Source: a virus
Lineage: Duplodnaviria; Caudoviricetes
Virus record (IMG/VR): IMGVR_UViG_3300011116_001007
DNA: 64,000 bases
Reading direction: 5' to 3' (one strand)
The notes beneath the pieces were generated by a model that was not told where the DNA came from, ran no database searches, and saw nothing but the letters and a program-made list of their open reading frames with translations. Every line of letters begins with the position of its first letter. Position 1 is the stretch's first letter. Of the stretch, positions 1 to 23,729 are shown piece by piece. A program made the translations under genes and the position numbers.

Positions 1-897
1 GTCTATAGTGGGATTCCATCCAGTGAGTTCGCGTAGTTTGTTACTGTTTAATGTATCACGATTTGGATAAAAGCTATCGTGCGGCAAACAATCAATCTTG
101 CTGGGAATACGATGTTGTATAAGTTCTGCAGCTTCTAAAATACGTCGACCATTACCTCTTGTGCAATTAAAAATTTCATTGGCACATGCAGCATGAGTTG
201 CAGCAGTAGCAAAAGCATCAGCAACATCGGTGACCCAGGAAAAATCTAATCGATTTTCGGGACCATGCACTTGTATTTGACCTTGAGTAAGTGCAGCCAC
301 TGCCATTTTTGATATCACCCGCACCACAGTATCTCTTGTGCCGTATAATGCACTGGGTCTTAGAATACTGTATTCTAATCCATGTTCCTTGTGCCAAATT
401 TTACACATTTGTTCGCATTGCAGTTTATAACTGCCGTACAAGGTCAATGGATTACACACAGCAGTTTCGGTAGGAGCAGACGAACCAAATTCTCCATACA
501 CCATGCTGCTGCTGGCCAGTACAAATCTTTTCACATGATGTTTGACACATAGATCCAATGCTATAGCCGTGGCAGTGATCATGTTTTCTGTAGCGTCAAT
601 TACATTGCGTTTGACCATCTTGGCATTGGGATATGTTGCCAAATCAATTGCCACATCAAACGACTGTGTTTCAAACACAGACTGCATGAATTTGAGATCC
701 GTAACATCACCAAATGCAAAATTATGAGCTGGCATATGTGTTAGACGTTGTTCAAGTATGGGATTGTATTCCCAATCAGGATAGTCTCCATAGGTATGAT
801 GCCGGTCCACTACTGTGATGCTGTGTCCTTGGTCTGCCAGCACCTTGGCTGTGTGATGACCAATAAAACCATGACCGCCCAATATCAATATGTTCAT
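1..897 (-). CDS. NAD-dependent epimerase/dehydratase (partial, runs off window start)
   Basis: Translated by hand, not in ORF track: MNILILGGHGFIG (GxxGxxG), SSSMVYG, YGSYK (YxxxK); ATGA overlap with upstream gene. Confidence 0.9.
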   Translation of the reverse strand, partial: MNILILGGHGFIGHHTAKVLADQGHSITVVDRHHTYGDYPDWEYNPILEQRLTHMPAHNFAFGDVTDLKFMQSVFETQSFDVAIDLATYPNAKMVKRNVIDATENMITATAIALDLCVKHHVKRFVLASSSMVYGEFGSSAPTETAVCNPLTLYGSYKLQCEQMCKIWHKEHGLEYSILRPSALYGTRDTVVRVISKMAVAALTQGQIQVHGPENRLDFSWVTDVADAFATAATHAACANEIFNCTRGNGRRILEAAELIQHRIPSKIDCLPHDSFYPNRDTLNSNKLRELTGWNPTID

Positions 898-4158: not shown

Positions 4159-4816
4159 CTAAATTGGTAGCCATTGGAAAGATTTGAGCAATTACTTGAG
4201 CACATGCCACTGCCACTTGTTGATGTTCTCGTTGTGTGCCATTGGCACTGCGTAACTGAATGAAGTGTATCCAACTGCGTAGTGTGCCATTCATGTACAG
4301 TCTACTGACTGTGTTGCCTTCGGGCAATATGGCTCTGGCTTGTTCTTTGGCTATGCCTAATTCTATAGCCCTGGTATAGTGTTTGCGTGACAAATCTATT
4401 ACTTCTTGTTGAGCACTATCCCACCACAGTGCTAGATCTTCATCTGATGATTCTATACTGTTTTGTCTGTTTCGAGTGTCTTGTAATCTAGCGGCTCGCC
4501 GTACAAAGCTGAGATCCTGCGTTGGATCAGCATAACGTTGGCTGAACTCTTGGAAGCTGAAACTTCTGTGTCTGAGAATTTGTCTTGCAATATCTCTTGT
4601 GGTGGTAATTTCAATACAAGCTGAGACCATTTCGAGTGGGCTCCAGTGTTGGTGTTCAACGAGGTATTGAATAAGTCTTTCTGAAGTTTCTGTGTTGAAT
4701 TGATTGGAGGGATTGCTAACACGGGCACAGTATGCAATGAGATCTTGTGCATTTTCAATTCCCATGCTAGCAAATTCTTCAGTTGGCTGGCTGTGACTGA
4801 GCAGTCGGACATTCAT
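4151..4816 (-). CDS. thyX: FAD-dependent thymidylate synthase
   Basis: HWSPLE and RHRSFSFQEFSQRY signature. Confidence 0.97.
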   Translation of the reverse strand: MNVRLLSHSQPTEEFASMGIENAQDLIAYCARVSNPSNQFNTETSERLIQYLVEHQHWSPLEMVSACIEITTTRDIARQILRHRSFSFQEFSQRYADPTQDLSFVRRAARLQDTRNRQNSIESSDEDLALWWDSAQQEVIDLSRKHYTRAIELGIAKEQARAILPEGNTVSRLYMNGTLRSWIHFIQLRSANGTQREHQQVAVACAQVIAQIFPMATNLVA

Positions 4817-5115: not shown

Positions 5116-5845
5116 CTGAAGTCACTGGCTTGGCTTTTGCAGGACGACCTTTTTTTGGAGCAGTTGTTACAGCCACAACAGGCGGAGCAACAGGTATTTC
5201 AGCAGGGCCATTTTTTACACCGGGGTACATGCGTTGTGCATCTTTCTTCATGCGAGCAGCTTCTGAGATCATGCTCTTGGCTTCAATCTCCATGCGTTTG
5301 GCCTGAGACAACATATTGTGAGCCAATGTTTTATCATCTAATGCACCATTTGAGCTGGCCATTAATGGAGCCACAGGCGGCGTTACTGGCCCACGTTCTT
5401 GGCTGCGTTTGTATTCAGCTTCGGCCTTGCGCTTCTGTGCAGGATCCACAAACCCAGTATTTTTGTCAATTTCTTGTAGACGTTTGAGAGCAGCGTCTCC
5501 AGATTCCATCTCACGAATGATCTTGTTCATCTCATCCAGCTTGACTGAGCTTTGGCTAGTGGGTGTCACAATGATCTGTGCAGTGGGTACTTTCTTGATC
5601 ATGCCTTCTTTGTGCAATGCTTCCAATTGTGCGCGGCCATCGGGCAACAAGTTTCTGTGTAACACTTCGCTCAATTGTGTAGCTGCCTGACCAGGCGCAC
5701 TTTCTAATGTGGCCATAATGCTGTTATGGATATGTGTGGGCAATGTGTCTGGATAAATCACAAGGCACATGTGCTCCTCATTTGGCACTTCTCTGAATAA
5801 TATAGCAACCTTGCGATCACCGTGACGTCCGATATGTTTAAGCAT
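5102..5845 (-). CDS. hypothetical protein
   Basis: Start reassigned to MLKHIG (AGGAG RBS upstream). Confidence 0.75.
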   Translation of the reverse strand: MLKHIGRHGDRKVAILFREVPNEEHMCLVIYPDTLPTHIHNSIMATLESAPGQAATQLSEVLHRNLLPDGRAQLEALHKEGMIKKVPTAQIIVTPTSQSSVKLDEMNKIIREMESGDAALKRLQEIDKNTGFVDPAQKRKAEAEYKRSQERGPVTPPVAPLMASSNGALDDKTLAHNMLSQAKRMEIEAKSMISEAARMKKDAQRMYPGVKNGPAEIPVAPPVVAVTTAPKKGRPAKAKPVTSDAVQ

Positions 5846-10119: not shown

Positions 10120-10148
10120 ATTATAGCAGTTCGGGCAATAGCGGTCAA
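10120..10148 (-). promoter_or_regulatory. sigma70-type promoter
   Basis: TTGACC-N17-TATAAT. Confidence 0.8.
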
Positions 10149-17558: not shown

Positions 17559-17570
17559 ATTTATATGATA

Positions 17571-20839: not shown

Positions 20840-20965
20840 TTACAGTATATGACTCCTCAAGGACCCGCGGGCTCCTGGAAATGTATTCACGCGACCATAG
20901 CCACGCGCCCAGGTACTTGCCTGATGCATGGGTTTAATCAACAGTGAACAGATTTGCGTTTTCAT
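20840..20965 (-). CDS. putative leaderless leader peptide 1 (41 aa)
   Basis: MKTQICSLLIKPMHQASTWARGYGRVNTFPGARGSLRSHIL; ATG 7 nt after TATAAT. Confidence 0.55.
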   Translation of the reverse strand: MKTQICSLLIKPMHQASTWARGYGRVNTFPGARGSLRSHIL

Positions 20966-21679: not shown

Positions 21680-21772
21680 TGGGCCTCTGAGAGTGGAATT
21701 GAACCACCAAGGTTTTTGGAACCTTTTTGACCTACTAGTAAGGACGACTTTACCGATTCGTCTACTCAGAGA
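21680..21772 (-). tRNA. atypical class II tRNA with possible CTA (amber) anticodon
   Basis: 8-bp acceptor, D-arm GAC-GAATCGGTAAA-GTC, loop TACTAGT, long variable arm, T-loop TTCAATT, CCA. Confidence 0.55.
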
Positions 21773-21855: not shown

Positions 21856-21890
21856 AGGTGGATAACAGATGCCGTAGCATCCGCTTCTCC
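21856..21890 (-). ncRNA. minihelix RNA, copy a
   Basis: GGAGAAGCGGATGC-TACG-GCATCTGTTATCC-ACC. Confidence 0.6.
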
Positions 21891-21896
21891 ATAACT

Positions 21897-21971
21897 TGGC
21901 GGTCTCAAGGGGTAACGATCCCCTTCTTCAACAGTGACAGTGTTGTGTGCGTCCATGAACACTTTGAGACC
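21897..21971 (-). tRNA. trnD: tRNA-Asp(GTC)
   Basis: Cloverleaf, G73; T-loop ATCGTTA. Confidence 0.9.
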
Positions 21972-22494: not shown

Positions 22495-22680
22495 TTGAAT
22501 TTGTAAGTAGCAGCACCTCACTCATTGCTACCATTCTACCTGTATTTTCTGTGAAGCCGCGGACAGGATAGAGGTACGTAGTAATAGTAGCTACTTAGCA
22601 GTTGCCATGTTGCCGGACTCGAACCGTTGCCTCATAAGGTTTTCGACGCCTTACTTTCACTACATCTACACTTACAAAAC
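22495..22680 (-). ncRNA. T-loop-containing RNA, copy 2
   Basis: Paralog of 21457-21679. Confidence 0.7.
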
Positions 22681-22681
22681 T

Positions 22682-22716
22682 TGGTGGATAACAGATGCCG
22701 CAGCACCCGCTTCTCC
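22682..22716 (-). ncRNA. minihelix RNA, copy b
   Basis: GGAGAAGCGGGTGC-TGCG-GCATCTGTTATCC-ACCA. Confidence 0.6.
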
Positions 22717-22722
22717 ATAACT

Positions 22723-22797
22723 TGGTAGAGCATAGCGGAGTCGAACCGCTCTTAGTGGACTGAAAACCCACTGTCCTAACCGATAGACGAATGCTCC
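22723..22797 (-). tRNA. trnE: tRNA-Glu(TTC)
   Basis: Cloverleaf, loop TTTTCAG. Confidence 0.95.
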
Positions 22798-22804
22798 ATG
22801 ATTC

Positions 22805-23040
22805 ACTATATGAAAACACAATTATACAGGAACTTTGCTGATAAAATCTAATCTAGCTATGATTAGACCAATCGCCGTCATTACTGCCTACCTGTTTCGT
22901 CTTCCTCATCTTCATGGCCTAAGCCACTGATTCAGCATCTTGTAAGTGGAGGAGTAGCCAGCCACGGCGGGGCTCAAACCCATAATCCTATCACTCACCT
23001 AACGATGTAGGTAACCTGTATAATTGTGTTTACATATAGT
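22805..23040 (-). repeat. ACCATAT-stem element, copy E (26-bp stem)
   Basis: ACTATATGTAAACACAATTATACAGG..CCTGTATAATTGTGTTTTCATATAGT around a structured 184-nt cargo. Confidence 0.8.
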
Positions 23041-23136
23041 GCTCAGAACTGAATCTGAGTACACTATACAAAATCAAATTTTTAACGAACTTGCTGCACT
23101 GTGTCGATGCACTGTGCTGCTTTCTAACTAGTCTCT

Positions 23137-23165
23137 AGTATAACACCAAGTGCGATACTGGTCAA
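23137..23165 (-). promoter_or_regulatory. sigma70-type promoter
   Basis: TTGACC-N17-TATACT. Confidence 0.75.
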
Positions 23166-23233
23166 CCGGTTTTGTAAAGCCCTACAATTTGGAAGGACTT
23201 TACAAATCTTGCTGTTTTTCCCTACTTGCCGCT

Positions 23234-23262
23234 ATTGTAGCAGTTGGGCAATTAGTGGTCAA
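23234..23262 (-). promoter_or_regulatory. sigma70-type promoter
   Basis: TTGACC-N17-TACAAT. Confidence 0.75.
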
Positions 23263-23267
23263 CCACC

Positions 23268-23294
23268 AAAAAAAAACCCGCCTAGTTGGCGGGT
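23268..23294 (-). terminator. intrinsic terminator (attenuator 2)
   Basis: ACCCGCC-AACTA-GGCGGGT followed by a long U tract. Confidence 0.9.
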
Positions 23295-23316
23295 CTTTCG
23301 TGAAATTTGTGTAGTA

Positions 23317-23415
23317 TCAAATATCACTAGGCCCGCTGAAGTCATAATCCAGCGCCTCACTCGCATAGTTGAGTGAGGGTATCTCTCGGGACAGTTGGGC
23401 TTGTTGCATAATCAT
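23317..23415 (-). CDS. putative leaderless leader peptide 2 (32 aa)
   Basis: MIMQQAQLSREIPSLNYASEALDYDFSGPSDI; ATG 5 nt after TATAAT. Confidence 0.5.
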   Translation of the reverse strand: MIMQQAQLSREIPSLNYASEALDYDFSGPSDI

Positions 23416-23420
23416 AGTGT

Positions 23421-23449
23421 ATTATATATGCCTATTGACAAAAAAGCAA
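23421..23449 (-). promoter_or_regulatory. sigma70-type promoter of leader 2
   Basis: TTGCTT-N17-TATAAT. Confidence 0.65.
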
Positions 23450-23537
23450 TTGTTTTCGGCAATTTTCATCAGATAATTATTTCTTCGTAATCTTCCCGAC
23501 CACAACCGCATTCTGGGCAAGTGAATGTGTCACGACG

Positions 23538-23729
23538 TTAGGCCATTTTATCAATGTTTTGCCCTGGACGATTCATGCGACGATTGATTTCGATGCGATG
23601 GGCTTCTTCGACCTGGTGTTGAAATTTTGCTCGAGCAGCTTCTTGTACTTTTTCCTGATGCTGTTGGTCCACGTGTTTTACGTCTTGAAGCCTGTGCAGT
23701 TGATTGTTGTATGCTGTGTCAATTTTCAT
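23538..23729 (-). CDS. hypothetical protein
   Basis: Ends IDKMA; TAAATA just upstream. Confidence 0.65.
   Translation of the reverse strand: MKIDTAYNNQLHRLQDVKHVDQQHQEKVQEAARAKFQHQVEEAHRIEINRRMNRPGQNIDKMA

Follow-up and report, generated by a model that had tools for sequence, protein, structure and literature searches.

What does a short open reading frame do when it stands between a promoter and an intrinsic terminator, ahead of a block of phage tRNA genes? The locus that raises this question lies on the minus strand of a 64,000-nt stretch of viral DNA (Duplodnaviria; Caudoviricetes; IMG/VR record IMGVR_UViG_3300011116_001007), which we refer to in full as the window. The window carries a minus-strand tRNA array with 34 tRNA calls, a permuted/beta-type tmRNA and a GOLLD RNA. 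Identical or near-identical DNA is present in IMG/VR viral contigs and in lake metagenome contigs, related contigs are as long as 350 kb, and we assign the window to an uncultured freshwater giant phage. A blastn search of deposited phage GenBank records matched only the tRNA-Glu, leaving the locus in no cultured relative. At the gathering threshold, cmscan of the whole window against Rfam reported only tRNAs, tmRNA and GOLLD, with no leader family and no T-box. The original prediction, made from sequence alone, had read the locus as the second of two leader-peptide attenuators, with Asp/Glu control codons, ahead of tRNA-Glu and tRNA-Asp. The comparative data described below support this reading, its function being inferred.

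We searched the window with an architecture scanner that requires a −10 box, an ATG 3–9 nt further on, an ORF of 12–70 codons and a stop codon no more than 60 nt from a strong terminator. The scanner yielded only two modules in the 64 kb: the locus under study, hereafter unit 2, and a second one at 20965, hereafter unit 1. The anatomy of unit 2, which is shown, is summarized in Table 1. Its terminator was missed by a simple terminator scan and was found both by RNAfold and by the architecture scanner; the stem comprises 12 bp (23299–23271) and is followed by a nine-U run ending at 23268. Most of these parts had been called in the original prediction. Its promoter, ATG spacing, 32-codon ORF and 8-bp hairpin held base for base, as did the pairing at seven of eight positions between region 2, GCGGGCCT, and the terminator arm AGACCCGC (23296–23289), a duplex of −11.4 kcal/mol. 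The stop codon, placed about 20 nt before the terminator, measures 18 nt from it, and the residue counts given for the peptide MIMQQAQLSREIPSLNYASEALDYDFSGPSDI (three Asp, two Glu, three Leu and five Ser) are correct.

Table 1. Parts of unit 2 and features downstream of it, in window coordinates
Feature	Position	Strand	Remarks
P1 −35 hexamer TTGCTT	23449-23444	minus	3/6 matches; TTGACT/TTGACA in relatives
P1 −10 hexamer TATAAT	23426-23421	minus	17-nt spacer to −35; CATATATAATACACT kept family-wide
Leader ORF including TGA stop	23415..23317	minus	Inferred leaderless; 32 codons; ATG 5 nt past −10
ORF stop TGA	23319-23317	minus	
Hairpin 1 (CCTCACTC/GAGTGAGG)	23378-23355	minus	8 bp, 8-nt loop
Control codons GAG(E20) GCG CTG GAT(D23) TAT GAC(D25)	23358..23341	minus	Match the family acidic cluster
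Hairpin 2 (GCUGGA/UUCAGC)	23353..23335	minus	Predicted to sequester the 5′ end of region 2
Region 2, antiterminator 5′ strand GCGGGCCT	23336-23329	minus	Placed by the profile on family GGGTCTTT
Spacer hairpin inside the antiterminator helix	23327..23300	minus	Topology common to 12/12 folded representatives
Intrinsic terminator GAAAGACCCGCC / AACTA / GGCGGGUUUUUU + U run	23299..23268	minus	5′ arm = region 3
P2, TTGACC-17-TACAAT with TG	23262..23234	minus	10/12 promoter, directly behind the terminator
P3, TTGACC-17-TATACT with TG	23165..23137	minus	10/12; serves as P2 in many relatives
tRNA-Glu(UUC)	22797..22723	minus	First tRNA downstream of unit 2
tRNA-Asp(GUC)	21971..21897	minus	

The 157-nt transcript of unit 2 folds at −55.4 kcal/mol (z = −5.0), a value that none of 200 shuffled sequences reached. 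In the terminated fold, GCCC at 23400–23397 pairs with GGGC, and the folding model predicts that this pairing and hairpin 2 together form an anti-antiterminator. Hairpin 1 is a possible pause hairpin; in the close relative L002 its loop carries a 3-nt insertion that stays in frame.

Distant relatives of unit 2 were found with DNA patterns that left the ORF unspecified; searches seeded with the leader peptides gave only very close relatives (L029–L033). Pattern A, consisting of the terminator arm and the downstream promoter, was run on viral and metagenome contigs, and pattern B, consisting of region 2 and the terminator without the downstream promoter, was run on viral contigs. Family counts were taken after removal of chance matches. 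The pattern scans gave 61 distinct ORFs encoding 58 distinct peptides, on contigs of uncultured freshwater phages. The close relatives L002/L030 and L031 differ from unit 2 by a few bases, and in L031 the unit is almost unchanged beside an upstream rubredoxin-like gene that is only ~75% identical. The first distant analogue, L033, was retrieved with the peptide of unit 1; it has a 25-codon ORF, MNQTTAIITTLRSEHEWDCHWGLCL, the same promoter, terminator and following promoter, and lies ~400 nt upstream of tRNA-Glu and tRNA-Asp. The neighbouring SGNH-like protein was also tried as an anchor and gave 28 loci, with the unit present in only the two closest.

A family profile built from 43 sequences that exclude the window's own lineage (model length 172) matched the window at 23450–23268 in an nhmmer search, with E = 2.8e-14 over model positions 5–169. 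We conclude that unit 2 is very likely a conserved member of a Glu/Asp leader family, and the conservation of this family is itself shown. Within it, unit 2 is the most diverged copy: its P1 −35 box is the weakest (3/6 vs 5–6/6 in relatives), and so is its antiterminator (−11.4 kcal/mol vs a family mean of −16.3 kcal/mol). Although the copy is diverged, all of its functional parts are intact.

The reading frame of the leader is maintained throughout the family. Over the 61 versions, the ATG frame contains no stop codons, compared with 98 and 122 in the other two frames. Leader length ranges from 21 to 32 codons with indels that keep the frame, and no broken-frame homologue occurs among the recovered relatives. 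The ATG is placed 5–6 nt behind the −10 box. The N-terminal two thirds of the peptide vary freely between subfamilies (MMQNIL..., MKQTTAII..., MKRTNTSL..., MITQ...), which is the pattern expected if the leader peptide itself is functionless.

The conserved coding signal is instead a cluster of acidic codons, and this bias is shown by the counts. We defined the control window as the 6–7 codons whose first base lies 8–26 nt upstream of region 2. Asp and Glu account for 158 of its 393 residues (40%) vs 28 of 1201 residues (2.3%) elsewhere; because the sequences are related, this enrichment is to be read as an effect size and not as an independent-sample probability. The codon at approximately −17 is GAG in 51 of 60 versions, and the codon at approximately −11 is GAT, GAA or GAC in 57 of 60, that is, Asp and Glu interchange. 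The control motifs include YEREDQ, YERDY, SEHEWD, SEREDD, AYESDC, AYEHDY and LEEDW. In unit 2 the motif is EALDYD, and its E20, D23 and D25 match the acidic cluster of the family, located at about −23/−17/−11 nt from region 2. The flanking codons and the local RNA folds differ between subfamilies, and these subfamily-specific folds argue against a shared RNA structure as the cause of the acidic codon conservation. The GAG at −17 is near-invariant at its third position too, and a constraint at the nucleotide level remains possible.

Residues other than Asp and Glu give a weaker picture. In subfamilies whose control window contains Tyr, Leu or Cys, the matching tRNA is often located beside the Glu/Asp tRNAs, and a permutation of the non-acidic control residues against the downstream tRNAs gives p = 1e-4. 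We treat this link as a lead only, because relatedness inflates p, counter-examples exist (L037, L142 and the SEHEWD group), and the subfamily-level count for Tyr (7/3/1/2) is not significant. The original prediction had also matched the Leu and Ser residues of unit 2 to downstream tRNAs. This part found no support as stated: the residues are not conserved, and ARAGORN called no tRNA-Ser in the block downstream of unit 2.

The alternative pairings on which an attenuator would depend are likewise shown. The core of region 2, GGGTCTTT, has its complement in the terminator 5′ arm (AAAGACCC plus 2–3 bases), and the pairing of the core with AAAGACCC is satisfied in 83% of cells vs 37–61% when the partner is slid. 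The core lies in frame 2 in 54 versions, in frame 1 in 4 and in frame 0 in 3, and is accordingly read as GLC, RVFV or RSLL depending on the frame; it is therefore conserved as RNA and not as peptide. When leaders were folded up to the 5′ arm, a helix between regions 2 and 3 formed around a spacer hairpin in all 12 representatives, unit 2 included. The terminator is paired in 99.7% of cells and has two covarying pairs, part of its arm having been fixed beforehand by the search patterns. In the antiterminator, the outer pairs covary (GGA with TCC, GCA with TGC, GCG with CGC), but the signal is statistically modest, with both partners changed in two pairs and the observed value reached by 11–26 of 500 shuffles. 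The energies of own vs swapped duplexes were set aside as a covariation test owing to the small effect, with a mean difference of only 0.8 kcal/mol; in 29 of 45 units the pairing was stronger with the unit's own arm. Region 2 of unit 2 does prefer its own arm (−11.4 vs −7.1 kcal/mol with other arms). A MAFFT placement of GATATTTGA of the window on the family region 2 was rejected, because both the profile alignment and a codon-by-codon comparison with L042 put GCGGGCCT there.

The spacing of these elements is compatible with control by a translating ribosome. In all members the first base of the stop codon lies −1 to +11 nt past the region 2 core, and the control codons lie about 8–24 nt upstream of region 2. 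The footprint of a ribosome reaches roughly 12–13 nt past the first base of the codon in the A site. On this footprint, a ribosome at the stop codon would cover region 2, while a ribosome at the −17 or −23 codon would leave it free; in unit 2, by the same geometry, a ribosome stalled at E20 or D23 would mask hairpin 2 as well. For several relatives, the full transcript already adopts the antiterminator as its minimum-energy fold, so that the ribosome-free default state is not settled.

Genomic linkage to the two cognate tRNAs is also shown. Among the 32 loci with at least 1.2 kb of downstream sequence, to which the test was restricted, tRNA-Glu lies within 1.5 kb downstream in all 32 and tRNA-Asp in 28. 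Of 65 members, 64 have a promoter (T[TA]GACN-16..18-TAnnnT) behind the terminator, and this extends to members recovered by the pattern that did not ask for one, so that the tRNAs can be made without read-through. P1 itself is usually of consensus strength across the family. The original prediction had noted two promoters, at 23137 and 23234, downstream of the terminator, and had cautioned that unit 2 might only add inducible output. Both promoters were found, as P3 and P2, and the caveat held as likely and general: the design probably combines one or more constitutive promoters with an attenuated upstream promoter, unit 2 contributing the inducible share. A separate terminator is present just upstream of P1 in at least 14 of 65 relatives, and the terminator of the unit is therefore not merely the end of an upstream operon.

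The window itself has no terminator between unit 2 and the truncated upstream gene. Only a C-terminal remnant (...TFTCPECGCGREDYEEIII) of this gene is left at 23532–23470 (minus); L002 still has the complete gene (5414–5548), which encodes a 44-residue rubredoxin-like protein of the CxxC...CPxCG type. In the window an in-frame TAA precedes the remnant, and a 63-aa ORF adjoins at 23538–23729.

Evidence at the RNA level is limited to assembled contigs, which are silent on starts, ends and termination; DNA carry-over is not excluded, and uncovered parts carry no meaning. One RNA-library contig covers 23317–23483 with ~93% likeness and spans P1. A stretch of ~215–250 nt directly 5′ of tRNA-Glu, at 22791–23042 (minus), is matched, in some cases exactly, by contigs of four RNA libraries from four studies, and is likely an abundant stable RNA.

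Several further features of the region were observed. Just past P2, at 23176–23207 (minus), a hairpin TTTGTAAAGTCC...GGGCTTTACAAA resembles the unit 2 terminator without its U run; it matches the family profile at E = 0.38, L042 has CAAAGACCC...GGGCTTTTG at the corresponding position, and either a degenerate copy of the terminator or an additional hairpin with a regulatory role is conceivable. Two copies of a 43-nt repeat with 95% identity occupy 21857–21899 and 22683–22725, starting on the 3′ ends of tRNA-Asp and tRNA-Glu, and after the repeat, at 22600–22690, there is a tRNA-like T-arm (GCCGGACTCGAACCG, plus strand) without a tRNA call. At 21680–21772 (minus) ARAGORN called a 93-nt long-arm tRNA with anticodon CTA as 'Pyl', a tRNA that the Rfam tRNA model did not list at the gathering threshold; we consider it more likely a phage amber suppressor tRNA with a long variable arm. 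The 20-nt motif TTACCATATAGGAACACACT (AGTGTGTTCCTATATGGTAA on the minus strand) occurs four times in the tRNA region, with plus-strand starts at 17569, 18595, 22164 and 22400, and could represent a different promoter class or a signal for processing. Elsewhere, at 10125–10088 (minus), the phage promoter TATAATACACAC is immediately followed by an ATG in frame with a Shine-Dalgarno-led start eight codons on, a possible hint that this phage makes wider use of starts right at the transcription start site.

On balance, and with moderate confidence, we favour the reading of unit 2 as a Glu/Asp-sensing, ribosome-mediated attenuator, a function that is inferred and not shown. In the mechanism we propose, the sigma-70-type promoter P1 would start the transcript at or beside the AUG, giving a leaderless mRNA, and a ribosome would translate the short leader, of 25–33 codons in the family. 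Upon reaching the stop codon, this ribosome would cover region 2, the terminator would form and the transcript would end at the U run. A ribosome stalled at the Glu/Asp codons would leave region 2 free to pair with the terminator 5′ arm, and the antiterminated RNA polymerase would read on into the block of small RNA, tRNA-Glu and tRNA-Asp, adding to the constitutive output of P2 and P3. Translation would have to be leaderless because no Shine-Dalgarno sequence precedes the ATG at 23415; the host is unknown. Leaderless translation, stalling at the Glu/Asp codons and read-through that responds to charged tRNA are all inferences, without direct data on start, translation or termination.

Two other explanations are possible, although we consider both unlikely. 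Unit 2 could be a translation-coupled attenuator that reports general translation status and not the supply of Glu and Asp tRNAs. Any ribosome shortage, or a slow start at a leaderless AUG, would then cause read-through, and the acidic codons might, for example, shape the behaviour of the nascent chain. In its favour, the antiterminator is the minimum-energy fold in several relatives, so that the mere absence of a ribosome could give read-through, and the N-terminal codons vary freely. It leaves unexplained, however, why only Asp/Glu codons are kept at a fixed distance from region 2 and why tRNA-Glu and tRNA-Asp are constantly found downstream. Alternatively, the product could be the short terminated transcript, serving the phage as a structured small RNA of ~150 nt in which the frame is tolerated or secondary, by analogy with rnTrpL and other small RNAs that derive from attenuators. 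The strong structure (z = −5.0), the dedicated promoter and terminator, the conservation of region 2 RNA across three reading frames and the many other small stable RNAs in the array all fit this view. Against it, a single frame is free of stops in 61 of 61 versions when each of the others holds around 100; a small RNA would maintain neither the ATG 5–6 nt past the −10 box nor a stop just behind region 2; and the 5′ two thirds differ in both sequence and fold between subfamilies.

The remaining two explanations fare worse, and we regard each as very unlikely. If unit 2 were simply a small protein gene, with an acidic product of 25–33 residues that has its own function and an ordinary terminator behind it, this would account for the open frame and for the conserved E/D motif with a GLC-like C-terminus. 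The 'GLC', however, is a translation of the RNA motif GGTCTTTG, which falls in different frames in other members and there yields RVFV or RSLL, the rest of the peptide is poorly conserved, and the complementarity to the terminator arm goes unexplained. The other possibility, which the original prediction had named as its refuting case, is a constitutive terminator that only ends upstream transcription, insulating the tRNA promoters from it, with the ORF and the pairing arising by chance. The lack of a terminator between unit 2 and the upstream gene remnant, the strong promoters directly behind the terminator, and L048, where the same terminator–promoter cassette stands directly behind a protein gene without a leader, all speak for insulation. 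The family-wide conservation of the ORF, the Asp/Glu cluster and region 2 speaks against it, as do the 14 or more of 65 relatives that have their own terminator upstream of P1.

If the attenuator reading is true, phages would use a test ORF to sense the quality of host translation and would tune the supply of their own tRNAs to it. This would account for the regulation of large phage tRNA arrays and would offer a handle on why phages carry tRNAs, whether for codon-usage compensation or for escape from host defences that target tRNAs. The family is small, modular and testable with reporters, and would be a source of natural Glu/Asp-responsive parts. A bolder reading, which we are slightly more inclined to doubt than to accept, is that the tRNA arrays of giant freshwater phages are built from codon-demand modules. 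In this view a leaderless test ORF would stand at the head of every block, and its control codons would specify which tRNAs come next: Glu/Asp in unit 2, plus Tyr, Leu or Cys in those subfamilies that have the corresponding tRNAs, and the 18 remaining amino acids in the case of unit 1. Such a phage would gauge decoding speed per amino acid and top up exactly the tRNAs running short, conceivably in answer to host defences that cleave or deplete tRNAs.

A close comparison to unit 2 is unit 1 in the same window (21001–20785). It shares the layout, with a TATAAT box, an ATG 7 nt further on, a 41-codon ORF, a terminator and a tRNA block, and its region 2, GGGTCCTT, faces the arm AAGGACCC. As originally predicted, its peptide lacks residues that unit 2 supplies: it contains 18 kinds of amino acid, and Asp and Glu are exactly the missing ones. 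Unit 1 differs in having no single cluster of control codons and a different set of tRNAs downstream, and it has no detectable sequence homology to the unit 2 family profile. A separate leader, L173 (IMGVR_UViG_3300001580_000005, 4537–4613), combines region 2 GGGGTCTTTG with a terminator of the unit 1 type, GACCCGGAACTAAACACTCCGGG, and encodes a peptide of mixed composition (...NYRDQETMGSLERLM); tentatively, it resembles a link between the two families.

Among known systems, T-box riboswitches (RF00230) also tie read-through to the charging of a specific tRNA, but they bind uncharged tRNA directly and have no ORF. The pheM leader of the E. coli pheST operon is an example of attenuation acting on a component of the translation apparatus; it is cellular and controls an aminoacyl-tRNA synthetase, whereas unit 2 is phage-borne and precedes tRNA genes. 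Leaderless polycysteine short ORFs in mycobacteria are cysteine-responsive attenuators (bioRxiv 10.1101/834739). They resemble unit 2 as leaderless 5′ short ORFs whose translation senses one amino acid and controls downstream genes, and differ in being actinobacterial and chromosomal, in controlling protein-coding operons and in having no sequence relationship to it.

Leader-peptide attenuation is textbook knowledge for amino-acid biosynthesis and a few related operons. In the full-text literature that we searched, we found it described neither for tRNA genes nor for phages, an outcome that does not prove its absence, and to our knowledge no classical attenuator uses Glu or Asp control codons. 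The leaders trpL, hisL, pheL, leuL, thrL and ilvL are attenuators of amino-acid operons (PMC2965389, PMC1262725). Unit 2 shares with them a short ORF in which control codons cluster, antiterminator and terminator pairings that exclude one another, a stop codon positioned such that a terminating ribosome would mask the antiterminator strand, and an intrinsic terminator ahead of the genes it would regulate. It differs in that its ORF appears to be leaderless, in the constitutive promoter behind its terminator, and in what lies downstream, namely phage small RNAs and tRNA genes and not enzymes of biosynthesis or aminoacylation. Compared with the classical attenuators, the defining new element is the regulated product, phage tRNAs.
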